The translations under genes were made by a program, and so were the position numbers. The notes under the pieces are model-generated. The model was given only the letters and a program-made list of their open reading frames with translations. It was not told the DNA's origin and ran no database searches. 43,518 nt of DNA, taken from positions 1-43,518 of the forward strand of contig JAEOTA010000075.1 of the NCBI GenBank assembly GCA_016840085.1, given 5' to 3'. Of this stretch, positions 1,410 to 43,217 are shown in pieces. Each line of letters starts with the position of its first letter. Within the stretch, counting starts at the first letter, position 1. The stretch comes from Promethearchaeota archaeon. GTDB lineage: Archaea; Asgardarchaeota; Lokiarchaeia; Sigyniarchaeales; SOKP01.

Positions 1410-3416
1410 TTATTTCTTTTTGGGCTTAAATACAATTGCTGGTTTCGCAATGTCAGAATAGAAGAAACCAGAAGTTTCTTGGATATCACCATATTTTGCT
1501 TTTAATTCCTCTATTGTTCCCGAATCAAGAGCACGTGCATAACAAGCCTCCACACAGATAGGTTGCTTCCCAACATCGAGTCGATCAACACAATAATTAC
1601 ACTTTTGCATTTTAGTTTTTTCTCCATTAGCAAACTGAGGTGCTGAATAAGGGCATACATCTTTGCATAAATGTCCTGCACAATTAAGGCATCTCTCAGC
1701 TTCCTTGATTGCTGCCTCTTCATTAAACCCTAAAGTTACTTCTTTGAAATTTGACACTCTCTCAGATGCAGACAGAAGTGGCATTGGTTGACGCGTTTTT
1801 TTCTCAGTTCCAGAAGGAATATCTACTATTATTTTAGAGGCTTCAATTATTGGGCTCTGTCTAACTCGAAGTACATCACCTTGAAGATAACGATGGATAT
1901 GAGAAGTAGCTTTTTGACCATCAGCAATAGCATCAATAATACTTGTTATTCCACTAAAACAATCTCCAGCAACAAATACGCCCTTACTGTCGAGCATTAA
2001 TGTCTCCGGATCTGCTGTTATAGTTCCCATTTTCCCGATCTTTATCCTACCTGAGTTAATAATATCAGGTACCTGACCAATCGCAAAAATTACTGTATCT
2101 GCTTCTAATATTTGCTCTTTATCATCAACAAGATCAAAATGGGCTTCTCCATCATCATCAAAAGTACATCCTGTGATCTCAAGGCATGCTACTCCACTAA
2201 TCTTTCCATTATTGCTAATGATCTTTGTAAAAGTACGTGAATCATAGATCTGAATTCCTTCCTCACGAGCTTGTTCAACTTCAAAAATATCAGCTGGCAT
2301 GTCATCACAACACTCAAGACATGTTACCCCTACTTCAGCAGCACCAAGACGACGGGCAGTACGAGCACAATCCATAGCAACATTCCCACCACCTATTACT
2401 AAAACTTTATTACCAATTTTAACTTCTTTTCCAAGGTTCACATCTCGCATAAATGAGGTTCCTACTAAAGTACCGTCTAAATCGGCACCGGGTATCTCTA
2501 ATTTTTTACCTTTATGAGCACCTATTGCTACTAATACCGCACCATATCCCTGTTTCAAAAGTTCATCTATACCTTTTCCAAAATCAATTTGAGTATTAGT
2601 TTTGATTTCTACACCAAGAGCTTTAATATAATCAATATCTCTATTTAGAATATCGCGTGGTAGACGGTGTTCTGGTATGCCTACAGATAGCATCCCTCCA
2701 ACTACAGATAATGCTTCAAAAATGGTAACACCATAACCTAATCTTATAAGGTCATAAGCAGCAGCTAATCCTGCTGGACCTGAGCCAATAATAGCTACTT
2801 CCTCTGATTGAGTTTGTGATACCTTTCTTGGAAGTTCTATAGGGACATTATCTGCTACAAAACCTTTAAGTGCTTCAATAGCAATTGCTTGATCCACTTC
2901 TTTTCGAGCGCATACTTCTTCACAAGGATGAAGGCAAACTCTCCCACATACTGAAGGTAAGGGCATTCTTCGTCTGATTAAGTCAAGAGCTTCCTTAAAC
3001 CTACCTTTAGCAATCAAAGCAGTATAAGCAGGAATAGGGAGATGAACCGGACAAGCTACTTGGCAAGGAGCTTGAAATTCACCATAATTGAGTTCAGAAC
3101 CCATAGATTCCTTGGATATTATACCACAAGGGTGTTCTTCACGACATTTATCCTTATCAACTATAACAATCCCATCTTCCTCTCTTTTTATTATTGCCTC
3201 ATTAGGACAGACGTAGGAGCATATTGGTTCTTCACAGTGATAACAGTTTGAGATAAGATAACTGGCAAAAATGTCTGGATATGGGCCTTCTTCTTGATAA
3301 AGAATTCTCATCCATGATGCTGAACCTGCTGGTTGATCATGCCAATCCTTGCATGCTACTCTACAAGCATGACAACCTGCACACCTTGTTTGATCAAAAT
3401 AAAATCCTACTTGCAT
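1410..3416 (-). CDS. DmsB-type ferredoxin with an inserted GltD-like FAD/NAD(P)-binding oxidoreductase module
   Basis: N-terminus QVGFYFDQTRCAGCHACRVACKDW and CYHCEEPICSYVCP (DmsB-like). Centre has PCQVACP, CGRVC, GSGPAG, GGGNVAMD, FAIGQ and AGD (GltD-like). C-terminus has EAERCLNC, CKDVCPY, KCNYC and PICVEAC. Confidence 0.9.
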   Translation of the reverse strand: MQVGFYFDQTRCAGCHACRVACKDWHDQPAGSASWMRILYQEEGPYPDIFASYLISNCYHCEEPICSYVCPNEAIIKREEDGIVIVDKDKCREEHPCGIISKESMGSELNYGEFQAPCQVACPVHLPIPAYTALIAKGRFKEALDLIRRRMPLPSVCGRVCLHPCEEVCARKEVDQAIAIEALKGFVADNVPIELPRKVSQTQSEEVAIIGSGPAGLAAAYDLIRLGYGVTIFEALSVVGGMLSVGIPEHRLPRDILNRDIDYIKALGVEIKTNTQIDFGKGIDELLKQGYGAVLVAIGAHKGKKLEIPGADLDGTLVGTSFMRDVNLGKEVKIGNKVLVIGGGNVAMDCARTARRLGAAEVGVTCLECCDDMPADIFEVEQAREEGIQIYDSRTFTKIISNNGKISGVACLEITGCTFDDDGEAHFDLVDDKEQILEADTVIFAIGQVPDIINSGRIKIGKMGTITADPETLMLDSKGVFVAGDCFSGITSIIDAIADGQKATSHIHRYLQGDVLRVRQSPIIEASKIIVDIPSGTEKKTRQPMPLLSASERVSNFKEVTLGFNEEAAIKEAERCLNCAGHLCKDVCPYSAPQFANGEKTKMQKCNYCVDRLDVGKQPICVEACYARALDSGTIEELKAKYGDIQETSGFFYSDIAKPAIVFKPKKK

Positions 3417-3418
3417 AC

Positions 3419-5743
3419 TTAAGCCCCTCCTTTTTCAAATTTTACTTCAACTAAACACGTTTTTAACGCTGCAGCTCCACCTTCACTCATCTCATCTTTA
3501 GTTAGTGTATTTGCACAACCACCTCTGTCAATACCTTCCTCATCAGGACTATACCATGCTCCTTCTGGCATTGCAACTACTCCAGGGATAATTCTTTTTG
3601 TTACCCAAGCAGGGACAGCAATAGTTCCACGATCATTGTATACTAGAACAATATCTCCGTTTCTAACACCTCTCGGTTCTGCATCGATTGGATTAATCCA
3701 TAATCTATGTAATCCTAGTTCTTGTAACCACTCAATCTTTTGCAATTCAGAATGGACTGAATGTCGTGGATGAAAACTAAGGAATTGTAGGGGATATTTT
3801 TCAGCTAGAGGATCATCACGATTCTCCCATGTTGGAATGTATGCTGCAATAGGTGGACATAGTGGATTATTCCAACTTGCGATTTGATCTGAATAAATTT
3901 CTATTTTTTTTGATGGTGTTGGAAAGGGATTGTTCTCAAAATCTTCTATATTCTTTTGAAATGCAACATAAGGTTCCTTTAGTTCGACTCTATGAACACT
4001 ATCTCTTTTATATTTATCATAATCTTTTACATGTTGTCTTACATCTGCTGCTACTACAGAAAAGACACGTAAAAACTTATCATTGACATTATCATATTGC
4101 TCTACAGCCGTTTTCACAGATTTTCTCATAGAATTTAAAAATCCTTCAAGAACATGCTCTCTCCCAAAATTTTCTATACCAAGCCTTTCAGCTAATTCTT
4201 CAGCGATAGTCAGATCATCTTTACATTCACCCATCGGCTCAATTGCTTTATTCATATGGGTGAAATAAGGTCCAGATGGCCAAGGTCTTGTGAGATCGCT
4301 CCTTGCAGCAAAACTTGTTGCAGGAAGAACGATATCTGCATACTGAGCAGTGGGCGTTAGCCACAATTCAGGTACAACAGTAAATAAATCTTCTCTTTGC
4401 ATAGCCTTTCTAGATTTATTAACATTTCCTATTTGGTTAACAAAATCACATTGTACAAACCAGGCAAATTTTATGTCAGCAGGATATCCACCTGATTTTC
4501 CTTTAAGGATTCCATCAAAAATCTTATTAACATGGATTCTAGTATCCAAACGGTCTCTAGGATTGATATTTCCCCTTAAAGATTTACCCTTTGGGTATGC
4601 TTTATTAATTCCTGGAGGAATTGCAATACTCCTGAACATATGACCATATGGGATTCCATGGAGCCCTCCACAAGCGCTTCCCCCATGTTTTCCAATATTT
4701 CCAGTCATAGCAGAAAGTGTGATAGCTGCACGGTTGTATTGTCCTCCCATGTACGATCTAGCAGGGCCTTGAGCATCTTCCAATGCAGCAGGTTTAGTTG
4801 TTGCATACTCACGAGCTAATGCTTCAATAATTGAAGCATTCACACCACATATTTTTTCAGCCCACTCTGGTGTTTTTGGAATTCCATCTTCTTCACCCAT
4901 AACATATGTTTTATATTTATCAAATCCATGAGTATATTTATCGAGGAACTCTTGATCCTGAAGATTTTCCTTAATCAATACATATGCCATCGCAGCCATC
5001 ATTGCAACATCTGTTCCGGGTATTATAGGAATCCACTGATCTGCTAAAATTAAGGCGGAATCTGAATATCTAGGATCTACTACTATTATTTTCGCTCCGT
5101 TTTCTTTTGCTTTTATTAGCCACCAAAGTGTATTTGTCCCCCCTATCATACGTGCAGGGTCAAAACCCCAAAGAATTATTAATTTTGAGTTCATCCAATC
5201 ATCACGGCTATGTCCTACGAAAATCTGTCCAAATCCATATGAAGCTTGAGTACCGAAGATAGCTCCTTGCGAGGAAATGTTCCCATATGAAGTTGTAAAT
5301 CCCCCTAATGAATTAAATAGCCTTGCATATGCAACAGCAGGAAGATGCAATGCTCCAAAATAACCTCCATTGCTTATAGCCAAAATACTTTGATTCCCAT
5401 ATTTTTCTATGACTTCTTTAATTTTAGTTACGATAATATCATAAGCTTCATCCCAAGATATCCTTTCGAATTTTCCCGATCCTTTAGGTCCAGCCCTTTT
5501 TAATGGATATTTCAATCTATCAGGATGATAAAGATATCCTCTCAATGATCTGCATCTTAGACATGCTCTAAGTTGTTTATCAGGATCTGCTGTATCATCA
5601 CCTTCAATGCGTATAATTTTTCCATCCTTGACATGGAACCTTAAGGGACACCGACCTCCACAATCAAATGCAGAAGTAGTTCTTACAATTTTTACTCCTT
5701 TGTCATCTATATTCTCTTCTTGATTTACCATATGATCTACCAA
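3419..5743 (-). CDS. DMSO reductase family molybdopterin oxidoreductase catalytic subunit (DmsA-like, predicted Ser ligand, no Tat signal)
   Basis: FDCGGRCP, HPDRLKYPLKR, GKFERISWDEA, YGNISS (DmsA YGDYSS equivalent), PGTDVAMM, TPTAQYADIVLPA, WINPIDA, NDRG and EGAWY. The likely start is the ATG at 5731. Confidence 0.92.
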   Translation of the reverse strand: MVDHMVNQEENIDDKGVKIVRTTSAFDCGGRCPLRFHVKDGKIIRIEGDDTADPDKQLRACLRCRSLRGYLYHPDRLKYPLKRAGPKGSGKFERISWDEAYDIIVTKIKEVIEKYGNQSILAISNGGYFGALHLPAVAYARLFNSLGGFTTSYGNISSQGAIFGTQASYGFGQIFVGHSRDDWMNSKLIILWGFDPARMIGGTNTLWWLIKAKENGAKIIVVDPRYSDSALILADQWIPIIPGTDVAMMAAMAYVLIKENLQDQEFLDKYTHGFDKYKTYVMGEEDGIPKTPEWAEKICGVNASIIEALAREYATTKPAALEDAQGPARSYMGGQYNRAAITLSAMTGNIGKHGGSACGGLHGIPYGHMFRSIAIPPGINKAYPKGKSLRGNINPRDRLDTRIHVNKIFDGILKGKSGGYPADIKFAWFVQCDFVNQIGNVNKSRKAMQREDLFTVVPELWLTPTAQYADIVLPATSFAARSDLTRPWPSGPYFTHMNKAIEPMGECKDDLTIAEELAERLGIENFGREHVLEGFLNSMRKSVKTAVEQYDNVNDKFLRVFSVVAADVRQHVKDYDKYKRDSVHRVELKEPYVAFQKNIEDFENNPFPTPSKKIEIYSDQIASWNNPLCPPIAAYIPTWENRDDPLAEKYPLQFLSFHPRHSVHSELQKIEWLQELGLHRLWINPIDAEPRGVRNGDIVLVYNDRGTIAVPAWVTKRIIPGVVAMPEGAWYSPDEEGIDRGGCANTLTKDEMSEGGAAALKTCLVEVKFEKGGA

Positions 5744-13419: not shown

Positions 13420-15717
13420 ATGATTGAAAAAAAAGATCAAAAGTCTCGTGATGAAGTAAAGATTATTCGTACTGGATGTTGCCACGATTGTGGTGGTAGA
13501 TGTAGCCTTTGGGCTCATGTTAAAAATGGTAAAATTATTAAGTTTGAAACAGATAGTAGCGAAGAATCTCAATTAAGAGCTTGTGCAAGGGGAAGAGCAT
13601 ATCGCCAAAGAGTTTATTCTTCAGAAAGACTTAAATATCCTATGCGCCGAATTGGCGAGCGAGGTGAGGGTAAATTTGAACGTATATCTTGGGATGAAGC
13701 TTTAGATATAGTTGCAAATAAACTTAAAGAAATTAAAAATAAGTATGGTAATTCAGCAATTCTTTTTGTTCCTGGTTCTGGAAATCAAGGTTGGATTCAT
13801 GGACCTATGCCTGTGGGATTAATGCTTAATCAATTTGGAGGTTATACTCGTATGTGGGGTGCCCCATCATATGAAGGGGCTCTGTTTGCGTCGATGGCAA
13901 CATATGGGACAATGATGACTGGTAATGCTCGTGAAGATTTTCTCAATTCTAAGCTTATCATTATATGGGGCTGGAATCCAGCAAATACAGTATGGGATCC
14001 AGGAACTCCTTTAATGTTAGCTAGAGCTAGAGAAAAAGGTATTAAGATAGTAAATATTGATCCAATCTTTACTGATTCTGCTGCAATTTTGGCTGAACAA
14101 TGGATACCTATTCGTCCAGGTACTGATTCTGCTATGCTTATTGCTATGACATATGTAATTATAACAGAAAATCTTCATGATCAAAAATTTATTAATAGCT
14201 ACACAGTTGGTTTTAATAAATATAAAAAGTATGTATTGGGAGATGAGGATGGAATACCTAAAACCCCAGAATGGGCTGAAAAAATAACTATTGTTCCAGC
14301 AGATACTATTATTAACCTAGCTCGAGAATATGCGACAAATAAGCCAGCAGCTCTCGTTGCTGGTTGGGGTCCTGCGCGTACTGCATTAGGAGAACAATAT
14401 TCAAGAGCTGCTAATGCCCTGTGTGCAATTACAGGAAATATTGGTATCAATGGGGGTTATGCTTCTGGTTTCATGAGAGCTTATTATAGTCGTGAAGCAG
14501 TTGTCTCAGGAGGGAAAAAGAAAGTAGGACCAGTTAAACCTGAAGAGCAAAAAAAATTAGTAAAAGATAAGAGTCCACGAGGTAATCCAGTTGATTTTAA
14601 TGCACCTCCTCGAAAAGATAGTTTATATAAATTAAGAGGTGGAACAAATCCTGCAAGTACTCGAATCCATTATAATGAATATTATGATGCCATATTACAA
14701 GGTCGAAAAGGAGGATATCCTGCTGATTTAAAGATGGCATATATTGTCGCAACAAACCATTTAAATCAATATAGCAATGTAAATAAGGGCATAAAGGCAT
14801 TAAAAGCTCTTGAATTCATTGTAGTTCACGAACAATTTATGACACCTACCGCTAAATTTGCAGATATTTTATTACCAGTTAATACTTTTATGGAACGTAA
14901 TGATATTGCTGTACCATGGCTAGGCTCACCCTATTATATTTATTTGAATAAAACAATTGATTCCTTATATGAATCCAAATCGGATTTAGAAATATGCAGA
15001 GAACTATCTAAAAGATTAGGGATTGATCCTGGTCTTTTAAACCTTTCAGAGGATCAAATCTTACGAATATTTACCTCCCCCCGTAAAGATATTAAAAGTT
15101 ATGATCAGATGAAAAAAGATGGATTTTATAAAGTAAAAGTAGAGGAACCATTTGTTGCATTTAAAGAACAGATAGAAGACCCTAAAAATAATCCTTTTCC
15201 TACATTATCAGGAAAAATTGAAATCTATTGCGAACATATGGCTGAATTAAACATCCCAAATATGCCACCTATTCCAAATTATTTGAGCCATGATGAGCAT
15301 TATGATGCACCCTTAGCAAAAAAATATCCTTTACAACTTCTTACTCCCCATAACAAAAGGAGAACTCACTCAAGTTTGAGTATGATTCCATGGTTAGAAG
15401 AAGTGGAACCACATGCGGTATGGATTAATCCAATTGATGCTGATTCAAGAAATATTGACCATTATGATTTAGTTGATATTTATAATGACAGAGGACGAGT
15501 AAGAATCCCTGCGAATGTAACAGAACGAGTTATCCCCGGGGTGGTTGTAATTTATCAAGGAGCATGGTATAATCCAGATAAAGATGGAGTTGATCTTGGA
15601 GGATGTGGGAATGTTTTAACAAAAGATACACGTTCTCCTGGAGGTGCATTTCCTATGAACAGTGCTCTGGTACAAGTAGAATTATTTTCTAAAAAAGAAT
15701 CGGAGGGCTCACCATGA
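13420..15717 (+). CDS. dmsA: DMSO reductase family molybdopterin oxidoreductase catalytic subunit (DmsA-like, predicted Ser ligand, no Tat signal)
   Basis: CCHDCGGRC...RACARG FS0 motif, RLKYPMRR, WGAPSYE, PGTDSAM, TPTAKFADILLP, WINPIDA and QGAWY. ATGA overlap with the next gene. Confidence 0.92.
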   Translation: MIEKKDQKSRDEVKIIRTGCCHDCGGRCSLWAHVKNGKIIKFETDSSEESQLRACARGRAYRQRVYSSERLKYPMRRIGERGEGKFERISWDEALDIVANKLKEIKNKYGNSAILFVPGSGNQGWIHGPMPVGLMLNQFGGYTRMWGAPSYEGALFASMATYGTMMTGNAREDFLNSKLIIIWGWNPANTVWDPGTPLMLARAREKGIKIVNIDPIFTDSAAILAEQWIPIRPGTDSAMLIAMTYVIITENLHDQKFINSYTVGFNKYKKYVLGDEDGIPKTPEWAEKITIVPADTIINLAREYATNKPAALVAGWGPARTALGEQYSRAANALCAITGNIGINGGYASGFMRAYYSREAVVSGGKKKVGPVKPEEQKKLVKDKSPRGNPVDFNAPPRKDSLYKLRGGTNPASTRIHYNEYYDAILQGRKGGYPADLKMAYIVATNHLNQYSNVNKGIKALKALEFIVVHEQFMTPTAKFADILLPVNTFMERNDIAVPWLGSPYYIYLNKTIDSLYESKSDLEICRELSKRLGIDPGLLNLSEDQILRIFTSPRKDIKSYDQMKKDGFYKVKVEEPFVAFKEQIEDPKNNPFPTLSGKIEIYCEHMAELNIPNMPPIPNYLSHDEHYDAPLAKKYPLQLLTPHNKRRTHSSLSMIPWLEEVEPHAVWINPIDADSRNIDHYDLVDIYNDRGRVRIPANVTERVIPGVVVIYQGAWYNPDKDGVDLGGCGNVLTKDTRSPGGAFPMNSALVQVELFSKKESEGSP

Positions 15718-16271
15718 AACAGATGGGATTTTATTTCGACCAAACAAGGTGCACTGGTTGCTATACTTGTTCAGTAGCTTGTAAAGATTGGAATGATATT
15801 GATGCTGGACCTGAAAATTGGATGCGTATAATAGCAAATGAAAAAGGAAAATTTCCAAATATATCTCTTTCATATCTTGCTATCGCTTGTAACCATTGCG
15901 CTGATCCTCCATGTATTAAAGCATGTCCCACTAATGCTATCACAAAAAGAGATTCTAATGGAATTGTTCTCGTAGATCAAGAAAAATGTTTAGGAAAAAG
16001 CGAATGTGGAGCTAAATGCTTAAAGGCTTGTCCATATAAAGCACCGCAATTCAGCTCAGAAAATGCCAAAATGCATAAGTGTCATCTTTGCTTTGATAGG
16101 TTAGAACAAGGTCAACAAACGATATGCGTTGAGGCATGTCCAATGTATGCTTTAGATGTGGATACGATTGAAGAATTACATAAAAAATATGGAACAAACA
16201 CAGAAGCTGATGGCTTTCACTACAGTGAGAAGATAAGACCGTCAATAATATTTAAAAAAAGAAATACCTGA
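15714..16271 (+). CDS. dmsB: DmsB-like 4x[4Fe-4S] electron-transfer subunit
   Basis: QMGFYFDQTRCTGCYTCSVACKDWN, CNHCADPPCIKACP, CLGKSECGAKCLKACPY, KCHLC and CVEACP. Confidence 0.92.
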   Translation: MKQMGFYFDQTRCTGCYTCSVACKDWNDIDAGPENWMRIIANEKGKFPNISLSYLAIACNHCADPPCIKACPTNAITKRDSNGIVLVDQEKCLGKSECGAKCLKACPYKAPQFSSENAKMHKCHLCFDRLEQGQQTICVEACPMYALDVDTIEELHKKYGTNTEADGFHYSEKIRPSIIFKKRNT

Positions 16272-23098: not shown

Positions 23099-23388
23099 TG
23101 ATATTTACCTATTTTTAAGTATTAAATTGAATTTCTTAATTGAAATCATAAGAGAGAATTTGAATATCTTTTTAAATTTTACTTTTTTATCAAAATCTTC
23201 TTGATAAATTTGGATAGAGTGAGAAATACTCTAATTTTTTTATTAGAGTCTTTAGTATGAATAATTATCCATTTACATTCGTAAAGTTGATATGGAATTT
23301 TAAAATTCTTAATATAATACTTTTAATTTTTAACTTTGACATAAAATTTCATTAAAAATAAAATAAAGCATAAAAAAGTGAAAAAAAT

Positions 23389-24666
23389 TTGGATTTAAAA
23401 GAAGTATGGTTAATTGATTATGCTCGGACAGCATTTTCTCGATGTAGACCACGAACACCAGAAAGGGATGTTTTTGGCGAACTTAGAGGAGATGAAATAT
23501 TGGCTCAGTTGCTAATGAAATTCTTTGATGAGAAATTAGCAGATAAAGGCATAGAAAAAAAAGATATAGAAGAATCTACTGTTGGAGTCGCAAATGGAAC
23601 ATTAGAAGGTTGGACTTATGGAGGGAGACTTCCCATCTTTATGGCAGGATTTCCAGTAACCACACCTGCATTCTTTATAGATAGACAATGTGGCTCAGCA
23701 GGTTCTGGTATGCATGTAGGAATTATGGAAATTATGACTGGGCATGCGAAATGCACGTTAGCTAATGGATTTGAACATATGGGTCGTGGTAGAGGCAGTG
23801 GAACTAGCCCAAATATGAAGTTGGTGGACAAAAATAGTATATATTATCGTTCTGATATTGATCTGAGAACAACTTTTAATATGCTTCAAACCGCTCAGAA
23901 GTTATATGAAGAAGAAGTACCTACATTTACTAAAGAAGATTTAGATAGGTTTGGAGTAAGAGCCCATAATTTAACAGTTAAAAGTCATGAGGAAAGGTGG
24001 TTTAAAGGTGAAATTATACCTATCGAGGGCCATGTTGAAGGTGATGTTAACACCCCAATGATGGTTGATAGAGATATGAATGCAAGACAGTCAAATATGG
24101 AAGGACATGCAAAATTACCACGATTATCAAGACCCTTTTATTTAGAGAAAAATGGCGGTAAAGAAGGATATGTAAAAAGAGAAGGCACAGAAGAAGGGAT
24201 TATTACTGTTGGAAACTCATCCCCTTTGAATGCAGGAGCCACAACAGCGGTTTGTATGGACGCTAAAGAAGCTGAAAAACGAGGTATTGAGCCAATGGCA
24301 AGAATTGTATCAATTGGTTGGGCAGCAGTAGATCCAACGACAATGGGACGAGGACCAGTTCCTGCTACAAAAAAGGCTTTAGCGGTAGCTGGATTGAAAG
24401 CTGAAGATATTGATTACTGGGAGATTAATGAAGCATTTTGTATTGTAACTCTAAATTGTATGGATAAATTTGATTTACCTTGGGACATAGTGAATATTAT
24501 GGGCGGGTCGACTGCTATCGGACATCCTCTTGGGAGTACTATGATCCGACTTACTGGAACTTTAGCAAGAATATTAAAGGATAAGAAAGCTAAATACGGT
24601 GTTGCTAATGCTTGTTGCGGTGGTGGCCAAGGAGTTGCAACAGTTATAGAAAATCTAGATGCTTAA
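23389..24666 (+). CDS. Acetyl-CoA C-acyltransferase (thiolase), catalytic residues intact
   Basis: DRQCGSA (Cys nucleophile), GNSSPLNAGA, WEINEAF, GHPLG and ACCGGGQG. Confidence 0.95.
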   Translation: MDLKEVWLIDYARTAFSRCRPRTPERDVFGELRGDEILAQLLMKFFDEKLADKGIEKKDIEESTVGVANGTLEGWTYGGRLPIFMAGFPVTTPAFFIDRQCGSAGSGMHVGIMEIMTGHAKCTLANGFEHMGRGRGSGTSPNMKLVDKNSIYYRSDIDLRTTFNMLQTAQKLYEEEVPTFTKEDLDRFGVRAHNLTVKSHEERWFKGEIIPIEGHVEGDVNTPMMVDRDMNARQSNMEGHAKLPRLSRPFYLEKNGGKEGYVKREGTEEGIITVGNSSPLNAGATTAVCMDAKEAEKRGIEPMARIVSIGWAAVDPTTMGRGPVPATKKALAVAGLKAEDIDYWEINEAFCIVTLNCMDKFDLPWDIVNIMGGSTAIGHPLGSTMIRLTGTLARILKDKKAKYGVANACCGGGQGVATVIENLDA

Positions 24667-29593: not shown

Positions 29594-30370
29594 TTATAGC
29601 TTTTGGATACAAAGCAATTTTTCTCTCCCTAGGAAAAGTACATTAAACTCATCAATAAAATTTTTTCCGATTAGTGCTTGAATTGGTAATCCACTAATAT
29701 CAGATGATGTGAATTCTAATTCATATGACAGATTTTCATATTGGAATATACTTTTATAGATTGATGCTTCAATAATTCCATTCGCAGTTAATATTTTACT
29801 TTTTCTAATAGGTTTTAATTCAAAATTTTCAATGAGCTTTCTATCAAGGGCCATAATCGATGCTCCAGTATCAACTAATCCAAGTAAAGACTTTTTATCT
29901 CCATTAAGTGATATGAAAAATTCTAAAATAGGAAAAAATCTTTTAGCAATTTCAGCTTGCTGGAAACATTTGGTATTTTCAGAAGAAAATAGTGAGAATA
30001 GTGTTTCAAATTGCTCAATTTCTTTACCTTTACGTAGAATCCCTGCAGAAGCTTCCGGGAACTTTTCGTAAAGCGTTTTCATTACTTCTTGCAATGTATC
30101 TCCAATAACTACAATTGTATTTCTAGAGATTCCTAAATACTTTCCATCTGGTATGAAATCAGGTATGTCAATTTTATCTAAATCGATAGGAGGATTTTTT
30201 TCTGTAAAGTTGTCGATTATTTTTTGCAAATTCATTTTTTCATCAATAGCTTCCCGAATGAATTCACTGACACTTTTATAACCTTTAAGCTTAGCAATTT
30301 CTTCTATTTTCTTCTTTTTATCTTCATCCACTTTAAAATTAATAATAGTCAAAATTGGTATTACCATCAT
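29594..30370 (-). CDS. RHH DNA-binding + DUF5678-like + clan AA (retropepsin-like) aspartic protease fusion
   Basis: IINFKVDEDKKKKIEEIAKLKGYKSVSEFIREAI (RHH); GKYLGISRNTIVVIGDTLQEV (DUF5678-like); LVDTGAS, TANG and LIGKNFI (retropepsin). Confidence 0.8.
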   Translation of the reverse strand: MMVIPILTIINFKVDEDKKKKIEEIAKLKGYKSVSEFIREAIDEKMNLQKIIDNFTEKNPPIDLDKIDIPDFIPDGKYLGISRNTIVVIGDTLQEVMKTLYEKFPEASAGILRKGKEIEQFETLFSLFSSENTKCFQQAEIAKRFFPILEFFISLNGDKKSLLGLVDTGASIMALDRKLIENFELKPIRKSKILTANGIIEASIYKSIFQYENLSYELEFTSSDISGLPIQALIGKNFIDEFNVLFLGREKLLCIQKL

Positions 30371-32877: not shown

Positions 32878-34212
32878 ATGAAGGAAAAAAGAGAAGTATA
32901 TTTAGTAGACCATGTTAGGACACCATTTTCTCAAGCAAATCCTCTGAATCCTGATGATGATGTTTTTAGTAAGAAATGGGGATTAGAATTTGCCACTCAT
33001 GTTTTGATTGACATGTTTGACAATCGATTACCGAACAAAGGAAGCACACTCAAACGTGAGAATGTAAGCGAGGTTTTAGTTGGAATTTCCTTACCACAAC
33101 ATGAAAACGGAACATTTGGGGGAAGAATTCCTATATTTATGGCAAATTTTCCCTTTAGTGTGCCTGCCACTGCATTTGACAAACAGGATGGTTCTGGTAT
33201 GGCAGCTTTACATGTTGGTTTTGGAAACATTTCAATGGGTTATTCTGACGTGGTGGTATCCTTGGGTTTAGATCAATCTACCCGAGTACCAGTACATAGT
33301 TACAATGGAAAAGTAACCGTATATGGAATGCCTCCAGATAAACTTATGCTTGATCCAAATAACAAATGGTATAATGATGATTTATATGATTGGAAAACGA
33401 GTCGGTTATTGTTTCAAGCGGCTCAAAAACTTGCAGAAGAAGAGGCAGAACTTTTTACAAAGGATGAAATGGACAAATTAGCGGCACGTAGTCATAATTT
33501 AGCAGAGAAAGCTTTGGAAAATGGATATTTCAAAGAAGAAATTATATCTATTAAAGGTCATAAAGAAGGTGAACCTGATAACCAAATTGAGATTGAAGAA
33601 GATCAATCTATTAAAAAGGCCGTTACTGTAGAAAATATTGCAAATATGCCTTCCATAAGCACCCCAGGATGGGCAGGTGGTTATAAAAATCCAGTATTTT
33701 CTAAAGAAGCATATATTGCAAAATTTGCAACAGAGGAAGGTATTATTACAACAGGAAATAGTGCTCCAATGAATGACGGGGCTTCAGTTTGTTTATTAAT
33801 GTCTAAAATTGCACTTGAACAATATAATTTAAAACCTATGGCAAAAATCATTTCAATTGGTTTTGCAGGGGTTGACCCAACTGTACGGGGACGTGGTGTG
33901 GTACCGGCATCCCAAATGGCTTTAAAACATGCGGATTTAAAAGTGGAAGATATTGATTTTTGGGAAATTAATGAATCCTTTAGTATCGTAGCACTGAATG
34001 CTGTTAATAAATTAGGAATTGATTGGGAAAATAAAATGAATATTCATGGAGGAGCAATGGCAATAGGGAATCCGTCATCAGCAACGGGTCCGAGAATCTC
34101 AGCAACATTAGCTAGAATTCTTAAAGAGAAAAATGCAAAATACGGGCTTGCTGCTATGTCATGTGGTGGGGGTCAAGGAACAGCTGTAGTAATTGAGATT
34201 ATAGATATGTAA
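32878..34212 (+). CDS. Thiolase-fold protein lacking all three catalytic residues (pseudo-thiolase)
   Basis: Collinear with both neighbouring thiolases but has DKQDGSG, NESF, GNPSS and MSCGGGQG. Confidence 0.88.
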   Translation: MKEKREVYLVDHVRTPFSQANPLNPDDDVFSKKWGLEFATHVLIDMFDNRLPNKGSTLKRENVSEVLVGISLPQHENGTFGGRIPIFMANFPFSVPATAFDKQDGSGMAALHVGFGNISMGYSDVVVSLGLDQSTRVPVHSYNGKVTVYGMPPDKLMLDPNNKWYNDDLYDWKTSRLLFQAAQKLAEEEAELFTKDEMDKLAARSHNLAEKALENGYFKEEIISIKGHKEGEPDNQIEIEEDQSIKKAVTVENIANMPSISTPGWAGGYKNPVFSKEAYIAKFATEEGIITTGNSAPMNDGASVCLLMSKIALEQYNLKPMAKIISIGFAGVDPTVRGRGVVPASQMALKHADLKVEDIDFWEINESFSIVALNAVNKLGIDWENKMNIHGGAMAIGNPSSATGPRISATLARILKEKNAKYGLAAMSCGGGQGTAVVIEIIDM

Positions 34213-35621: not shown

Positions 35622-36206
35622 TTATAATCTTCTTTTAGGTTTAGGATAAATGTAATAAATAGATGGATTTGTTCCTTCCTCTGGTTTTAATTGAAAAAGA
35701 TCATCTCTAGATAGTATTTTTGATATTTTACTATCAGGATCGTTTAAATCTCCAAAATGTAATGCTTGTCCTTCGCAACAAAGAACACAGAAGGGATCAA
35801 GACCTTCATCTATTCTATGAGCACAGAGATTACATTTTTCTGCTAGATTACTAGTTTCATCGAATACAATGACATCATACGGACACGCATCTAAACATGC
35901 TTGGCATCCAGTACACGATTCTTGATCTAAAATCACAATTCCATCATCCCGTTTTTGTAAAGCGTCAACTGGACAAGATTCGATGCAAGGTGGATTTTCA
36001 CAATGGTTACATAATCTAGGGAGAAAATTCAGAGTTAAATCTGGAAATTTCCCAGCTGGAGTATCTTTAATACTTGTTCCTTGAGTCTCAACTTTTATCC
36101 AGAAATTAGATGAATTGTTTTCTATTCTGCATGCTACACTACATGCTTCACATCCGATACATCTTTCTTGATCAATAACCATACCAAACCGTTTACTCTT
36201 ACTCAT
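35622..36206 (-). CDS. DmsB/NrfC-type 4x[4Fe-4S] subunit
   Basis: CIGCEACSVAC, CNHCENPPCIESCP, CTGCQACLDACPY, KCNLC and PFCVLCC. ATGA overlap with the upstream Mo-enzyme gene. Confidence 0.92.
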   Translation of the reverse strand: MSKSKRFGMVIDQERCIGCEACSVACRIENNSSNFWIKVETQGTSIKDTPAGKFPDLTLNFLPRLCNHCENPPCIESCPVDALQKRDDGIVILDQESCTGCQACLDACPYDVIVFDETSNLAEKCNLCAHRIDEGLDPFCVLCCEGQALHFGDLNDPDSKISKILSRDDLFQLKPEEGTNPSIYYIYPKPKRRL

Positions 36207-38452
36207 TTTTTCTCAGCCTCCACAGCTACATCATTCATATGCATGTTAGGTTCATAGATTTTATCCTGAACTGGATTAATGATATCATGTGTAAGATGGT
36301 TTAAGCTTCCTTCTTTAAACTGCTCTATCCACCAACCTTCAGTAATGTCAAGTACTCCCGGTTGAACACCTTGAGAGATTCTAGCTTTTAGTGTTGTTCG
36401 AGCTCTGTCATTAAAAACCGTTACTATATCATTATTTGAAATATTTCGTTTTTCAGCATCAATTGGATTTATATCGACTATAGGTTCAGGGTTTAAATCT
36501 AATAAAGATTGCACGTTAGCAAACATAGAGTGTGTGTGGAAACGAGTATGACCATTCACTAGTGTTAAAGGATATTTTTTTTCTCCAGAACCAATAGGGG
36601 CTTCTATTGGTGGTAAATAAACGGGAAGGGCTTCTCCATCTTCAACCAATTGCTCCGCATATAGTTCAATTTTTCCAGAAGGTGTTCCGAAATTTAATGG
36701 GAAGTTTGTTCCTTCTGGAAGTGCTGGTAATCTCATTGCTTGGGTTTTTAAAGTTTCTCGAGTTATTCCTTTAAAGGAGCGAGTTACCATAATAAGGTCT
36801 ATTAATCCTTCTTCACCCCCCTTAAAGTAATCTCCAAACCCAAGGCGTTCAGCAAGTTCAGCAACAATAGTAGCATCTGATTTTGATTCAAATAACGGTT
36901 CAATAACTTTTTGTTGGAGTTGCACGTTCGGATATGGTTGAGCTAAGAAATCTGAGAATTCTAAAAAACTGCAAACTGGCAGAATTAAATCAGCATATTG
37001 TGCAGATGGAGTCATGAACAATTCAGTTTGCACTATAAACTCTAAACTTGGGTAAAATTTTTCAATAATTTTATTGGAATTTGCACATTGGTTCAAAAAG
37101 TTAATAAAAGCAAACCAAAGAGCTTTTATAGGATACGGTTTTCCAGAAATCACAGCCTCATACAGATTAAGTATTCCCATTCTATGAAAACTGGGTTTAT
37201 CGGGAATTGCTTTTAAGAAAGGATTCCAGTTTAGAATAGCAGGAATATAACCTGAAATCACTGAGGTAGTTACATTACCAGTTACTGCTGCTACAGATAT
37301 CATTCCCCGTAAAGAAATATCTCCATGATAGGTTCGAGTAAAACCCATATGCGTCAAAAATATAACTTTTTTGGAATTACCAATTCTTTTTGCTAATTTA
37401 CTAACGAGTTCTTTTTCTATTCCGGTAATTTCTTCAGTTTTTTCTAAAGTATACTTTGAAGCTAAATCCATTAATAACTGAATAACCGGTTTACATTCAA
37501 TACCATTTATCATATAAGTTCCAGTAAGGCTTGCTTCTTTTAGATTTATGCGGGATTGTGCTTTATGAAAATTAGAAGGTTTATGCCATATGATATATGA
37601 CTCTAGTTTTCTTGCTTCTACATCCCTGCCCCGAAGTAGTTATCCGGTATCAGTTCTTACCAGATAGGCTCCGTTAGTATGTTTTAATATGAATTCTTTA
37701 TCATGTAGATTATCTTGGAATATTACATTCATTATACCTAAAGCCAAAGCACTATCGGTACCTGGTTTTAATCCAATATATTCATCCGCTTTCGATGCTG
37801 TAACTGTGAAACGAGGGTCTACAACTATTATTTGAGTTCCATATTCTTTAGCATCTAGAACTTTTCTCATATTTTGTAAAGGCATAGATTCCGCTGGGTT
37901 TGTACCCCATATCATTAGTAATTCTGGATACTTCCTTTGCCAGAATTCTCCAAACAGAAACATATAAGGAAATTGGTGACCAAATATTACTCTACTTCCA
38001 CATGGTAACCCCGCATCTCCATAACCCCAGGCACTCACACGAGTGCTTTGTGTTAAACTTGCTAATCTAAGATATGCACCAAATTTTGTAGTTCCCACGC
38101 CAGGTCCACCCAAAACCCATCCTATCGATTTCCATCCATATTTTTCAGAAATTTCTTTAAATTTCGAAATGATTATTTCATAAGCTTCTTCCCATGATAT
38201 TCGCTCAAATTTCCCTTCACCCCTTTCTCCAACTCTTTTCATAGGATATTTAATACGATCCGGGTGATATGTAATATCTAAACTAGCTAATCCACGTAAG
38301 CAAATCCTTCGATCTTTCTCGTCAGGGAAGTCCGCAGGTTCCAATTTTACAATACGATCTCCTTTTACATGAGCTAAAATTCCACAGCAATCTATACCGC
38401 AATGCGCTGGACATGCAGTTCTTACTAACTTAACTTGTTCCCTTTCAGTCAT
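36203..38452 (-). pseudogene. DMSO reductase family molybdopterin oxidoreductase (predicted Asp ligand), interrupted by one in-frame TAA at 37640-37642
   Basis: ORFs 37640..38452 and 36203..37513 are in the same frame. The bridge reads YLVRTDTG*LLRGRDVEARKLESYIIW...TGTYMING, giving 749 codons in total. Motifs: CPAHCGIDCC...ICLRG, GYGD, PGTD, SAQYADLILP and FNDRA. Confidence 0.85.
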
Positions 38453-38599
38453 CTCTTATCAATATTTCCATAAAATTTCAATAGGTGGTTTTAAATATTA
38501 GGTATGATAATGAAAAAATTGTAATAATTATTATTAGAAATAACATATAAAATTATCAATTGATAAATTTAATGAGATAAGATAAAGGTAAAAATTACT

Positions 38600-40531
38600 A
38601 TGGTAGTAGAGGAAGTGAAATATTTATTCCAACCGATAACGATTGGGGATGTGGAAATAAGTAATAGGATAATGATGGCGCCAATGAATACGAGATTTGG
38701 CTATGATGGATATGTAACCGATCAATTAGTGGATTACTATGTAGAAAGGGCCAAAGGAGGTGCTGGTTTTATTTGTGTAGAGATGGGTATCATAGATTAC
38801 CCGATAGGAAGTACAGCAGGCAAAGGTATGATTGCGACTGATGACGATAAATATCTTCCAGGGCTGACACAGTTAGCTGATGCAATAGAAAAAGGAGGGT
38901 CAGTTCCGATGATTGAATTATCACATGGGGGGAGATATTGTCATTCAGGCCTTACTGGTATGCAACCTGTAGCGCCATCTCCTATTCCAGGTTATCGAGG
39001 GAGAGGGGAAATGCCAAGAGAATTAACTACTGAGGAGGTTGAAGAATTGGTTGAAAGATTTGGTGACTCTGCGAGAAGAAGTGCTGAAGCAGGATTTAAG
39101 GGTGTATTACTAATGGGGTCAACTGGATATTTAATAAGTCAATTCGGATCACCTCTTACAAACAAGCGTACTGATAGATTTGGAGGAGAAACTCCCGCAG
39201 AACGGGCAACTTTTATTGTTGAAATTATTAAAAATATTAGAAAAAAACTTGGAAACAAATTCCCTGTAATTTATAAAATTAGTGCTGAAGAGTACATAGA
39301 TGGGGGTACAGTTCTAGAGGATTCTCAAATTATGGCAAAACGGGCAGAGCAAGCAGGAGTTTCTGTGATACACACATGGGCAGGATGGCATGAATCACCA
39401 AAACCTATGTTACCTATGTCAGTTCCTAGGGGTGCATTTGTATATTTAGCAGAAGCGATGAGAAAGATAATAACTGTTCCTATTATGACAGGAGGAAGAA
39501 TCAACGATCCTCGATTGGCTAATGATATTATAAGAGACGGAAGAGCAGATTTGGTACATTTTGGCAGGCCATTTTTGACTGATCCATATTTCCCAAAAAA
39601 AGCTATGAAAGGTGAATTTGACGATATTAATATGTGTATAGCTTGTTGCCGTTGTTTTGATGCCATGGCTAGTCCAGGAACTATTGTGTGTTCTGTAAAC
39701 GCTGGATTGGGTAAGGAAGGTAAAAAATTAGAGAAAGCGGAAAATTTGAAAAAGATCCTCATTATTGGTGGGGGTCCAGCTGGGATGGAAGCCGCAAGGG
39801 TAGCAACATTAAGAGGTCACAAAGTGACTCTATGGGAGAAAAATGATCAGCTAGGAGGAAATTTAATAACGGCGTCCTTAGCCCCTCATAAGGAGGAGAC
39901 CAATTGTTTAACACATTACTTAACATATCAGATGAAGAAATTAAAAATTAATGTTCAGCTTAATAAAGAAGCAACGCTAGATTCTATTTTGAAGGAAAAC
40001 GCTGATGAGGTTATCGTAGCTACTGGTGCGACAGCAATAACTCCAGATATACCAGGTATTAACGCTAAAAATGTTGTTATGGCAGTTGATGTGTTAAAGG
40101 GAACGTCAAGCACAGGTGATAATATTGTAATAATAGGGGGAGGAATGATTGGTTGCGAGACAGCTGAGCTTCTAAGATCTCAAGGAAAGGATGTTTCTAT
40201 TATTGAAATGTTGCCAAAGATTGCACGAGATATTGGCCCTGCAACAAAATGGTCAGTAACAATGAGAATAGCTAGATGGGGAATTAAACAATTCACCTCA
40301 TCAAAAGTTATAGGCATAAGAGATGACGGTGTTGAAATTGAAAGAGAAGGAAAACCCGAAATTGTAAAAGCAGAAACAATTGTTATTGCAGCAGGTATGG
40401 AACCTAATATTAAATTACTTAATTTAGTGAAAGAAAAACTCCCAAACATGCATGTAATTGGAGATTCTTCACAAGCTAGAAGAATGTTAGAAGCGATTCA
40501 TGAAGGGTACTCCTTAGGTCAAAGACTCTAA
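38600..40531 (+). CDS. fadH: 2,4-dienoyl-CoA reductase (FadH)-like old-yellow-enzyme / Fe-S flavoprotein
   Basis: NRIMMAPM, ERAKGG, MGSTGYL, TNKRTDRFGG, GWHE, CIACCRC..CSVN, GGGPAG and GGGMIG. Confidence 0.85.
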   Translation: MVVEEVKYLFQPITIGDVEISNRIMMAPMNTRFGYDGYVTDQLVDYYVERAKGGAGFICVEMGIIDYPIGSTAGKGMIATDDDKYLPGLTQLADAIEKGGSVPMIELSHGGRYCHSGLTGMQPVAPSPIPGYRGRGEMPRELTTEEVEELVERFGDSARRSAEAGFKGVLLMGSTGYLISQFGSPLTNKRTDRFGGETPAERATFIVEIIKNIRKKLGNKFPVIYKISAEEYIDGGTVLEDSQIMAKRAEQAGVSVIHTWAGWHESPKPMLPMSVPRGAFVYLAEAMRKIITVPIMTGGRINDPRLANDIIRDGRADLVHFGRPFLTDPYFPKKAMKGEFDDINMCIACCRCFDAMASPGTIVCSVNAGLGKEGKKLEKAENLKKILIIGGGPAGMEAARVATLRGHKVTLWEKNDQLGGNLITASLAPHKEETNCLTHYLTYQMKKLKINVQLNKEATLDSILKENADEVIVATGATAITPDIPGINAKNVVMAVDVLKGTSSTGDNIVIIGGGMIGCETAELLRSQGKDVSIIEMLPKIARDIGPATKWSVTMRIARWGIKQFTSSKVIGIRDDGVEIEREGKPEIVKAETIVIAAGMEPNIKLLNLVKEKLPNMHVIGDSSQARRMLEAIHEGYSLGQRL

Positions 40532-40679: not shown

Positions 40680-40696
40680 GAAAAAGATTATAAATA
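40680..40696 (+). promoter_or_regulatory. Candidate archaeal BRE-TATA element
   Basis: GAAAAAGA-TTATAAATA about 70 nt upstream of ATG 40767. Confidence 0.35.
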
Positions 40697-40766
40697 AAAA
40701 ATAATTACTAAATTAAATTACGGTAGTAAGGACTCAAATTTTAATAAAATTCATAGTGAAATTTTT

Positions 40767-42575
40767 ATGACAATAGCTAAAGGGAAAATAACTATTAAGA
40801 AATCTGGCAATGGTGGTTATAAGAGTGTATGGCTTTATATTCCAAGTAAGATAAGTAAAGATAATTCTTTTCCTTTTAATGAAAATGAAGAAGTATTAAT
40901 TGAAATAGAAGATGGATCTTTAGTTATCAGTAAAAACGAGGAACTTGCTAAAATTGTTAAAAACTTTGGAATTGATAATGCTACACTTCCAAAGTTATTA
41001 GAGATAAAAGCCGACAAAAATGGGGATAAACCCTTTCTTTATTTTAAAGATCAATATTTTTCTTATGTAGAAATTAATCGAAAATCAAATCAAATAGCCC
41101 ATGGAATAATGGAATTTATTAACAAATTGGATTTAAAAAAGCCTCATATTTCTATAATGATGGGTAATTGCCCAGAATATATTTTTACGTGGTTTGGTAT
41201 AATAAAAGCGGGATGTATATTCATTCCTATTAATTTATTTTTAAATAATGAACTCATAGAGTATGTACTAACTAATAGTGATACTGATATTATCATTACA
41301 GATTATAAATATTTTGTTAAATACAAGAATATATTTGCCAAACTAAAAAAAATTAAAATAATATTTATCCACAACGCTCCAGAAAACTTTAATTTTAATT
41401 CAAAATATTTAGATTTTAAGTTATTAAATAAGTCAAATTTAAGTAATCCTAAAATCTATATATACGATGAGGACCTTATAGAAATACTATATACAGGAGG
41501 ACGAACGGGAAAACCTAAAGGAATCGTAAAGAGAAAGATTGTTTTAAGTGGAATCGCTATAGGATATGAATTAAAAAAAATAGGCTTGAAAAAAGAAAAT
41601 AAAATATATTGCACTTACCCTTTATACATGCCAGCAGCACAATCATTTGTAATTATACCTTCATTATTTTATGATGTCTCTGTCATTATCTCTGACGAAT
41701 TTAGTCCATCAACTTTTTGGGAAATAGAAAAAAAATATAAACCTGATGGTTTTTGCTATTTTAGAGGTTATTTGGCAGAGTTATTACATCAAACACCTAA
41801 TATAATGGATAGAACCCATTCACTTAGATGGGCATATGGTGCCGGTGCAGACATTGATATATGGAATGCTTTTGAGAAGAGATTCGGGATTCCATTATAT
41901 GAATGTTGGGGACATTTAGAAGGCATAGGGGTAACTATTAATAGAATAGGATCTCAAGGAGGTAAAACAGGATCAGTAGGTACTCCAATAAATTATGTAG
42001 AATTAAAAATTATGGATTCAGAAGGAAAAGAATTATTCCCTGGTCGAGATAATGTCGGTGAAATAGCAGTTAAGCGCAAATATGGTGATATATTCGAATA
42101 TTACAAAGTACCTGAGAACACAGATGTAAGAATAGACGAAAATGGTTGGATGTTTACAGGTGATTATGGATATAGAGATTATGATGGCTTTGTTTATTTT
42201 AAGGGTAAGAAGGATGAGATTATAAATATTGAAGGTGATATAATTCTTACTAGAGATATAGAACGTATTGCTAATTCACATCCACATATTCTAGAAACTG
42301 CTGTTATTCCTATTAGTAATAAAAGTAATCCTAAAATTGATTTAAAATTAATAGCGAAAAAAGTGAAAAATCGTTCAATAACACATGAAGAACTCAGTGA
42401 TTATTTATATCATAATCTAGCTTATTATCAAGTGCCAAGATATATTGAATTTAAAGATGAATTAACTAAAGGTCCAGGTACTGAATTGCTAAAGGAAATC
42501 ATTAGACAAGAATCGAATAATCGAGAATCAAGGAATAATACCTGGGACACTAAAACACGAGATTTCTTGAAATAA
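40767..42575 (+). CDS. AbrB/SpoVT-like N-terminal domain fused to a CaiC-like acyl-CoA synthetase (ANL) fold with degenerate motifs
   Basis: Residues 1-57: KITIKKSG..SVWLYIPSKI..FPF..NEEVLIEIEDGSLVISK. Then NCPEY, KAG, YTGGRTGKPKG, FEKRFGIPL, TGDYG and LAYYQVPRYIEF. Confidence 0.85.
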   Translation: MTIAKGKITIKKSGNGGYKSVWLYIPSKISKDNSFPFNENEEVLIEIEDGSLVISKNEELAKIVKNFGIDNATLPKLLEIKADKNGDKPFLYFKDQYFSYVEINRKSNQIAHGIMEFINKLDLKKPHISIMMGNCPEYIFTWFGIIKAGCIFIPINLFLNNELIEYVLTNSDTDIIITDYKYFVKYKNIFAKLKKIKIIFIHNAPENFNFNSKYLDFKLLNKSNLSNPKIYIYDEDLIEILYTGGRTGKPKGIVKRKIVLSGIAIGYELKKIGLKKENKIYCTYPLYMPAAQSFVIIPSLFYDVSVIISDEFSPSTFWEIEKKYKPDGFCYFRGYLAELLHQTPNIMDRTHSLRWAYGAGADIDIWNAFEKRFGIPLYECWGHLEGIGVTINRIGSQGGKTGSVGTPINYVELKIMDSEGKELFPGRDNVGEIAVKRKYGDIFEYYKVPENTDVRIDENGWMFTGDYGYRDYDGFVYFKGKKDEIINIEGDIILTRDIERIANSHPHILETAVIPISNKSNPKIDLKLIAKKVKNRSITHEELSDYLYHNLAYYQVPRYIEFKDELTKGPGTELLKEIIRQESNNRESRNNTWDTKTRDFLK

Positions 42576-42701
42576 AACCCCAATTACTTTACGAACGTAA
42601 ATATCCATTTATGAATTCATCAAAATAAAAAGAATTTAAATTTATAAAATAATTTTAAAACCTAAGTTAGAAAATATTCCAAAAATGTGAGTTTTCGACA
42701 T

Positions 42702-43217
42702 ATGGACACTGAAAGTCAAACTGAACAAGAATATCCTAAAGAAAAAGGGCATATCAAAGTTGATTGGGGAAGGCAAGGTGGAGTTATTGCTGCCTATTTA
42801 GTTCTCCTCTTAGGGTATTATGGAATCATTGCGAATACAATGATGTATGATGAATATGGTCATTAGGTTCCCTTTATGGAGATGGATAGGACCATCCTTT
42901 TTTGGACGTATACTACATATTTAAATAATTTCTTCTTACCTGCATTGTTATTGTTTTTTGTTTGTTTACTTTTAACTTATAAGGAAGATATTCCGCATTA
43001 TGGAATTAAAGCGTCATTATGGGTAGTGCCACTCCTCATCGCGGAAGGATTCATATTCTATATTCTAATGTTTGGCTTCACATCTGAACCAGCATATCTC
43101 AAATTTGGTCGTATAGAAGGATATTTAGATATAATTATTTTATTTGGATTAGCTCTTTCTGGGGCGATAAGCGGTATGAAACTCAAGCAGTATATTGAAC
43201 AAAAAAGAGAAGTTTAA
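42702..43217 (+). pseudogene. Multi-pass membrane protein interrupted by one in-frame TAG at 42864-42866
   Basis: ATG 42702 is in frame with the listed ORF at 42876: MDTESQ...GVIAAYLVLLLGYYGIIANTMMYDEYGH*VPFMEMDRTILFW. One hydrophobic segment precedes the stop and about three follow it. Confidence 0.7.

Follow-up and report, generated by a model that had tools for sequence, protein, structure and literature searches.

A gene of the Lokiarchaeia encodes, in one chain, an AbrB-type swapped-hairpin domain and a degenerate acyl-CoA ligase (ANL) fold, and a palindrome, TTAC-N4-GTAA, is conserved at its own promoter and at the promoters of a few linked genes. The protein is probably a one-component transcription factor, in which the N-terminal domain would act on the palindrome as a dimer and the ANL body, probably catalytically dead, would serve as a ligand sensor. 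The gene was found in the window, the whole stretch of 43,518 nucleotides analysed here, from a genome of 4.68 Mb and 29.5% GC; the features are listed in Table 1. The initial annotation had proposed a one-component factor controlling the surrounding beta-oxidation genes, and the union of both domains in one chain and the family-wide palindrome at its own promoter agree with the first part of that proposal, but not with the choice of targets.

Table 1. Coordinates of the fused gene, its promoter elements and its candidate target in the window.
Feature	Position	Strand	Basis
BRE/TATA-like promoter element of the fused gene (putative function)	40680..40695	+	sequence; kept in close relatives
Weak (one-mismatch) copy of TTAC-N4-GTAA	40705..40716	.	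sequence comparison
Candidate autorepression operator: exact TTAC-N4-GTAA palindrome covering the predicted transcription start	40718..40729	.	
Fused gene: AbrB-type domain and degenerate CaiC-like ANL (acyl-CoA ligase) fold, 602 aa	40767..42575	+	single ORF
AbrB/MazE/SpoVT swapped-hairpin domain (aa 1-57), IYIP...FPF subfamily, predicted homodimer	40767..40937	+	
ANL large N-lobe (about aa 73-483)	40983..42215	+	
ANL small C-lobe (aa 484-602)	42216..42572	+	
Candidate activation site: exact TTAC-N4-GTAA palindrome, followed ~27 nt downstream by a BRE/TATA-like element (about 42627-42641)	42589..42600	.	
Candidate target: 171-aa hydrophobic membrane-protein gene downstream of the fused gene, no Pfam family	42702..43217	+	

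Architecture and distribution of the fused family

The reading of this frame as an AbrB-like domain joined to an ANL fold, already made in the initial annotation, is upheld in its ANL part by Pfam matches to AMP-binding (residues 79-437; PF00501, 153 bits) and AMP-binding_C (498-568), while the first 65 residues alone gave no Pfam or NCBIfam match above cut-off. A homology search retrieved full-length homologs in about 89 clusters (clustered at 90% identity; 42-61% identical to the query), beyond which scores fall to ordinary ligases without the N-terminus. A second fused paralog is present in the same genome (G000:C75:47672-49477), and a profile of the N-terminal domain identified carriers in 54 of the 161 genomes of the class Lokiarchaeia, the domain being almost always part of a frame some 600 aa long. 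These findings establish the fusion as a genuine, conserved feature and rule out a singleton or a misassembly. A DNA-binding-type and an input-type domain are kept as a unit across the ~89 clusters.

The names on all close homologs are Promethearchaeota/Lokiarchaeota, Helarchaeota or other Asgard labels; the fused family spans Lokiarchaeia including Helarchaeales, and elsewhere in the phylum the N-terminal profile finds small stand-alone proteins only. Several MAGs filed under Thor-, Odin-, Hod- or Hermodarchaeota (L002, L011, L024-L027, L034) have genes and synteny near-identical to those of Lokiarchaeia, and these labels are probably loose, since in the genome-taxonomy search the fusion turned up in no other class. 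In a tree of the ANL part all fused proteins form one clade (SH-aLRT 100), nested within CaiC-like ligases that lack the fusion and come from bacteria, Thermoplasmata and Lokiarchaeia. The ESM Atlas contains the fused protein as a 52-member 'AMP-binding' cluster, and a feature search of the same resource returned nothing. Large fusions of the N-terminal domain other than those to ANL, tandem duplicates and one DUF5678 protein were not found, an absence that is weakly supported, and literature searches, of incomplete coverage, gave no description of an AbrB-ANL fusion.

The N-terminal domain

The N-terminal domain is the best-conserved part of the protein, with a mean identity of 57%, the two ANL lobes being at 51% and 44%, and Ser13, Tyr18, Trp22, Tyr24 and the Phe-Pro-Phe motif are invariant in it. 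Residues 1-62 of the query alone match PF04014 below the cut-off (E 0.17); among the 142 family members, 34 match PF04014 (best 2e-6) and 10 match the AbrB model TIGR01439. The domain was modelled at a pLDDT of 89.5 with strands at 7-13, 18-24, 43-48 and 51-56 and a helix at 27-30, the layout of four strands and one short helix in about 50 residues that characterizes the swapped-hairpin superfamily. A structural search with this model, a check recommended in the initial annotation, gave 12 matches (Z 2.7-4.7, rmsd 1.8-4.1 over 44-51 residues), of which ranks 1-10 are AbrB, SpoVT, VapB or MazE types or small archaeal proteins that we take to be AbrB-like. The matches of the predicted structure are weak one by one and consistent taken together. 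The top match is 5itj, a 'histone-like protein' (Sulfolobus chromatin protein), and a PDB sequence search with the domain returned MazE only, at E 0.5-0.8.

Modelling of the domain as a dimer, likewise suggested initially, produced a homodimer scoring 0.51 versus 0.00 for the best control, with 154 contacts, a pLDDT of 73 and contact agreement of at least 96% between runs; of the solved pairs 20 of 30 attain this score mark, as does 1 of 23 single chains, and resemblance to AbrB dimers of known structure may account for the pass. The predicted dimer is intertwined, with the closest contacts between beta2 and beta2', beta4 and beta4', and beta1 and beta3', the contact order described for the VapB2 barrel (PMC3326315). 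Family matches, structural matches and predicted dimer together favour the swapped hairpin first assigned to residues 1-57. The invariant loop residues and the co-conserved palindrome suggest that the domain would bind DNA through its beta1-beta2 loops.

The profile search with the N-terminal domain retrieves 416 proteins, mostly stand-alone archaeal proteins of 50-90 aa, some with two tandem copies. Among them is a large unnamed stand-alone archaeal AbrB-like family with the FPF signature (P0134-P0268; found, for example, in Bathyarchaeota), which includes some tandem duplicates and is the likely donor of the fused domain.

A conserved palindrome at the fused loci

The palindrome TTAC-N4-GTAA emerged from comparing the upstream regions of the fused loci. 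Of 50 loci, 30 have an exact copy no more than 120 nt from the fused gene (0.2 in shuffles) and 38 have a copy there with at most one mismatch (6.1 in shuffles), the compared genomes being kin, so that site and gene may have been inherited together and the counts are not independent events. Copies with at most one mismatch are missing at the fused gene in about 12 of the 50 loci, one of them the promoter of the second fused gene of the query genome. Early-branching Helarchaeales loci also have the palindrome, often as the sole exact copy in 14-22 kb. In the genome of the query it stands within 200 nt of 15 of 3761 genes (0.4%); genome-wide it is no commoner than other spacers or half-sites, and its counts do not separate genomes with the fusion from genomes without it. 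A global regulon was rejected on the ground of this lack of enrichment, which fits a small local regulon.

At the gene's own promoter the palindrome follows the BRE/TATA-like element at a distance of about 23 nt and covers the expected start, the positions of TATA and start being read from consensus; the promoter element itself had been recognized in the initial annotation and is conserved in close relatives. In one genome (G353) the ortholog (L132:1099-1350, contig C74) has an internal deletion that leaves the AbrB domain only, and both palindromes are mismatched, a single case that could be an assembly fault.

Footprinting thus places a conserved site at both the own and the target promoters, as expected of a one-component factor, and the fused protein very probably binds TTAC-N4-GTAA, as judged from the sequence comparisons. 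That the palindrome instead belongs to another factor, with the AbrB-like domain only dimerising or binding DNA non-specifically, is quite unlikely: the histone-like top structural match and an HTH protein in some of the loci would suit such a reading, but the HTH gene occurs in 6 of 51 loci only, and no other regulator common to the fused loci was found. Moreover, the palindrome tracks the fused gene family-wide through differing neighbourhoods and is absent from homologous targets where the fusion is lacking.

Candidate target genes

The gene downstream of the fused gene probably encodes a 4-TM protein, judged by eye, and is interrupted in the query genome by a TAG at 42864-42866 where relatives have Trp. 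Copies of this membrane gene that adjoin the fused gene have the exact palindrome in 7 of 8 cases, versus 0 of 10 where the genome lacks the fusion and 1 of 12 where the fusion sits elsewhere. An Opp-type binding protein gene linked to the fusion has it in 6 of 7 cases, and the operon for a DUF2284 protein, a corrinoid protein and RACo, which lies 5' of the intermediate-clade (paralog) genes, carries it before its first gene in 28 of 29. A further, distal gene, for a 682-aa two-anchor protein (L084:3028-5076; G000:C78:195027-197075), is preceded by an exact or one-mismatch copy in 7 close orthologs, which belong to genomes with the fusion. The 682-aa protein has hydrophobic ends and internal repeats; a CD36-like identity was considered and dropped, Pfam and PDB giving no support.

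In archaeal promoters a site over the start generally leads to repression and a site upstream of TATA to activation. At the target genes the palindrome precedes the TATA-like element by about 13-30 nt, and this placement, together with that over the start of the fused gene, points to autorepression at the own promoter and activation at the targets, the fused protein being probably an autorepressor plus activator.

The target genes allowed no ligand to be named, the two target sets failing to converge on a single one. The neighbourhoods of the fused genes contain CoA transferases, CaiC-like ligases, a ChsH2/thiolase pair, the corrinoid system and the importer, which suggests a CoA-activated organic acid as the ligand class; a small-molecule acyl ligand is likely, and that of the paralog clade is perhaps a methylated or methoxylated acid. 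The DUF2284-corrinoid-RACo operon (L080:3982-7583; G000:C75:43981-47582) is conserved and has no recognisable methyltransferase inside, and DUF2284 might be its missing substrate-specific subunit. Its corrinoid protein scores below the MtgC/MtbC cut-offs, the methyltransferases elsewhere in the genome are 16 of URO-D type and one of MttB type, and the Opp-type binding protein gave weak PDB matches only.

Erosion and retention in the ANL body

The ANL body has the large N-lobe, small C-lobe and AMP-binding region of the fold (model pLDDT 87.8) and matches acyl-CoA ligases over its whole length (Foldseek E 1e-38, prob 1.0). The best NCBIfam models for the query are PRK06187, PRK06155 and CaiC, all far under cut-off (CaiC, 215.8 versus 651 bits; PRK06155, 233.7 versus 722 bits). 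The query keeps A3 Lys251, A5 Glu385 and A7 Asp466, the last belonging to the ribose-binding TGD motif that had been reported as retained and being kept in 96-97% of the two main fused subclades; all three residues are retained in 92-100% of fused proteins, and in 96-100% within each of the intermediate and derived clades described below. In the N-lobe A3 Thr is replaced by R246, A4 His by M288, A5 Thr by L384 and A8 Arg by K481; in the C-lobe the hinge Asp has become Glu484, the A8 G-E-N loop is gone, and the A10 position, aligned to the catalytic Lys of 4-coumarate:CoA ligase, is Glu573 (42483-42485). None of the residue sets of an active ligase (A10 Lys; A8 Arg, hinge Asp and G-E-N loop; A3 P-loop, A4 His and A5 Thr) is thus intact in the query. 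Much of this had been anticipated: the initial annotation found the catalytic Lys not evident, correctly, and its hinge Arg-to-Lys change stands, joined now by the losses at the hinge Asp, the G-E-N loop and A4. Its eroded P-loop is only partly so, R246 being aberrant but the Gly at position 2 ordinary (64% of unfused paralogs).

Comparison with unfused relatives, which had also been proposed, shows a graded loss, with 18.2 of 19 canonical motif positions in sister ligases, 14.0 in the intermediate fused clade, 11.2 in the derived clade and 12 in the query. Unfused sister ligases have K or R at A10 in 25 of 25 (Arg 68%, Lys 32%), and the earliest fused branch, P0072 (Helarchaeota), has nearly all motifs intact and the sister-clade Arg at A10. 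The intermediate clade keeps the P-loop, A7 and the A8 Arg-Asp, has Leu or Phe at A10 in 27 of 27, and shows A4 His changed to Gln and no G-E-N loop. In the derived clade, which holds the query, the P-loop is also eroded (with a Glu in 57%), A8 Arg is Lys in 78%, the hinge Asp is Glu in 86% and A10 is Glu in 76%; Lys is back at position 573 in one nested subgroup. The lost positions drift freely in the query's clade. Ten close pairs give dN/dS values of 0.12-0.25 for the ANL part, indicating purifying selection and therefore a maintained domain rather than a decaying gene.

The A10 Lys touches the adenylate and the hinge Asp mediates lobe rotation (PMC8807600), and A4 His and A8 open the route for CoA (PMC10601079). 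With A10 Lys, A4 His and A8 lost, both half-reactions are probably gone in the query's clade, for which normal ligase activity is very unlikely, and binding at the AMP site may remain. A trigger enzyme whose ANL body still slowly adenylates, or a half-reaction enzyme that only makes the thioester from preformed acyl-AMP in the manner of PtmA2, with turnover as the signal to the regulator, is accordingly an unlikely alternative; it would explain the near-universal A3 Lys, A5 Glu and A7 Asp, the well-preserved P0072 and the returning Lys573, and split half-reactions exist (PMC6594144), but it has to contend with the loss of the residues for adenylation and for CoA access, with the free drift of these positions, and with the more than 20 other ANL ligases of the same genome, most of them with intact motifs. 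Residual or half-reaction catalysis is more likely for basal members than otherwise, since the nearly intact P0072 implies that basal fused members may be bifunctional.

What the ANL body would sense bears on another reading, in which the same site is bound and the signal is only an adenine nucleotide (the AMP/ATP ratio) or a partner protein such as an active ligase or the importer. The nucleotide-binding residues are indeed the best kept, the carboxylate-gating A4 His is lost and a P-loop Glu is frequent in the derived clade; nevertheless, the regulon appears small, local and substrate-specific (importer, corrinoid system) rather than global, and residues of the acyl-pocket region (e.g. 256-266, 331, 358, 388-400) are conserved in a family-specific manner, so that this reading seems rather unlikely.

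Proposed mechanism

In the mechanism that we favour, a factor with a dead ANL body as acyl sensor, two copies would dimerise via the N-terminal swapped-hairpin barrel, and the beta1-beta2 loops, with Ser13, Tyr18, Trp22, Tyr24 and basic residues, would contact TTAC-N4-GTAA. The ANL body would no longer turn over, its AMP site and two-lobe hinge being kept, and would bind a carboxylic acid or its acyl-AMP or acyl-CoA form, probably with an adenine nucleotide. The ensuing lobe movement would alter the seating on DNA of the dimer, or of a dimer pair where tandem sites are spaced by 13 or 20 bp, giving repression where the site covers the start of the own promoter and activation where it lies just upstream of BRE/TATA at the targets. 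The regulon would be small and local, comprising the membrane protein and the Opp-type importer in the query clade and the DUF2284-corrinoid-RACo operon in the paralog clade.

Known systems and significance

The fused protein would work like SpoVT and GfcR without belonging to either family. SpoVT of Bacillus subtilis (PDB 2w1t; Z 4.0, rmsd 2.6, 49 aligned residues against the N-terminal domain) likewise has an N-terminal swapped-hairpin DNA-binding domain and a C-terminal ligand-type domain, but its partner is a GAF domain, whereas here it is a 530-aa ANL ligase fold in an archaeal protein of the IYIP...FPF subfamily. GfcR, a catabolic regulator of the archaeon Haloferax volcanii, and PurR of Firmicutes are proposed to derive from an enzyme fold and to bind pathway intermediates (PMC10838023), although they combine a PRT fold with HTH instead of ANL with a swapped hairpin. 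The AbrB/MazE/VapB2 antitoxin-type repressors (PF04014; PMC3326315) share the dimeric barrel and short palindromes at their own promoter; in contrast, no toxin partner is present here, and the signal input is proposed to act in cis via the ANL domain.

On the enzyme side, the protein has the full ANL fold of the CaiC-like ATP-dependent acyl-CoA ligases (PRK06155, PRK08008, PRK06187), among whose unfused members its clade lies, but fails as an active ligase: it scores 216-252 bits against cut-offs of 476-722, has lost catalytic motifs and carries an extra N-terminal domain. PtmA2, cited in PMC6594144, is also a non-adenylating ANL enzyme; unlike the fused protein, with its eroded A8 loop for CoA access and attached DNA-binding domain, it carries out the nucleophilic half-reaction.

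To our knowledge, almost no transcription factor-operator pair has been established in Asgard archaea, for which the present analysis offers a protein with a 12-bp site and predictions of its targets and of the sign of regulation, all open to in vitro work with no need of cultures. On balance, we lean towards an undescribed factor family that uses ANL domain alternation as an allosteric switch on a swapped-hairpin dimer, acts as activator and autorepressor at TTAC-N4-GTAA and preserves an Asgard enzyme-to-sensor transition in living intermediates, namely the active-looking basal fusion, the A10-less intermediate and the fully eroded form. If this is true, the ANL superfamily joins the enzyme folds recruited as sensor domains, and graded natural intermediates become available for the study of pseudoenzyme origin. 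In databases the fused proteins go under the names crotonobetaine/carnitine-CoA ligase and AMP-binding protein, which inflates the counts of lipid-activating enzymes in Lokiarchaeia, and finding the ligand would name the substrate of an orphan Opp-type importer and of a corrinoid system. ANL pockets can be retuned, which makes the protein a possible biosensor scaffold.

Neighbouring genes of the window

The fused gene does lie downstream of the gene initially called fadH, but the latter is a FadH/BaiCD-like OYE flavoenzyme whose score reaches none of the curated cut-offs shown. Synteny of the beta-oxidation neighbours is kept within the derived clade, but control of these genes by the fused protein, as initially proposed, is not supported. 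The spacer between the OYE flavoenzyme and Mo-enzyme genes (38453-38599), singled out for a binding assay, has an exact palindrome in 0 of 9 relatives for the OYE flavoenzyme and in 0 of 11 for the Mo-enzyme, and the crotonase-thiolase operon has none. An exact copy at 23273-23284 precedes the thiolase gene at 23389 and is kept in 0 of 24 orthologs; a one-mismatch copy at 38595-38606, over the OYE start codon, is not kept in orthologs either. Regulation of the adjacent OYE, Mo-enzyme and crotonase-thiolase genes was therefore rejected. A better-placed candidate regulator of the adjacent beta-oxidation genes is a 258-aa protein with an N-terminal ribbon-helix-helix domain, encoded at 29594-30370 on the minus strand.

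The thiolase-fold gene at 32878-34212 (+), which adjoins an intact thiolase, has Asp in place of the catalytic Cys and is without the NEAF motif and the GHP His; the same Asp is present in relatives L002 and L004, and the gene appears to be a conserved pseudo-thiolase. The molybdopterin oxidoreductase gene at 36203-38452 (-) has an in-frame TAA at codon 271 (37640-37642), which is not a Sec codon, and the relatives' protein is intact (about 749 aa, 82-89% identical); the split gene is a pseudogene or an assembly error. Three molybdopterin oxidoreductase/Fe-S pairs (1410-5743, 13420-16271 and 35622-38452) stand among the acyl-CoA catabolic genes of this one 43-kb contig, two of them DmsA-like at scores below cut-off.
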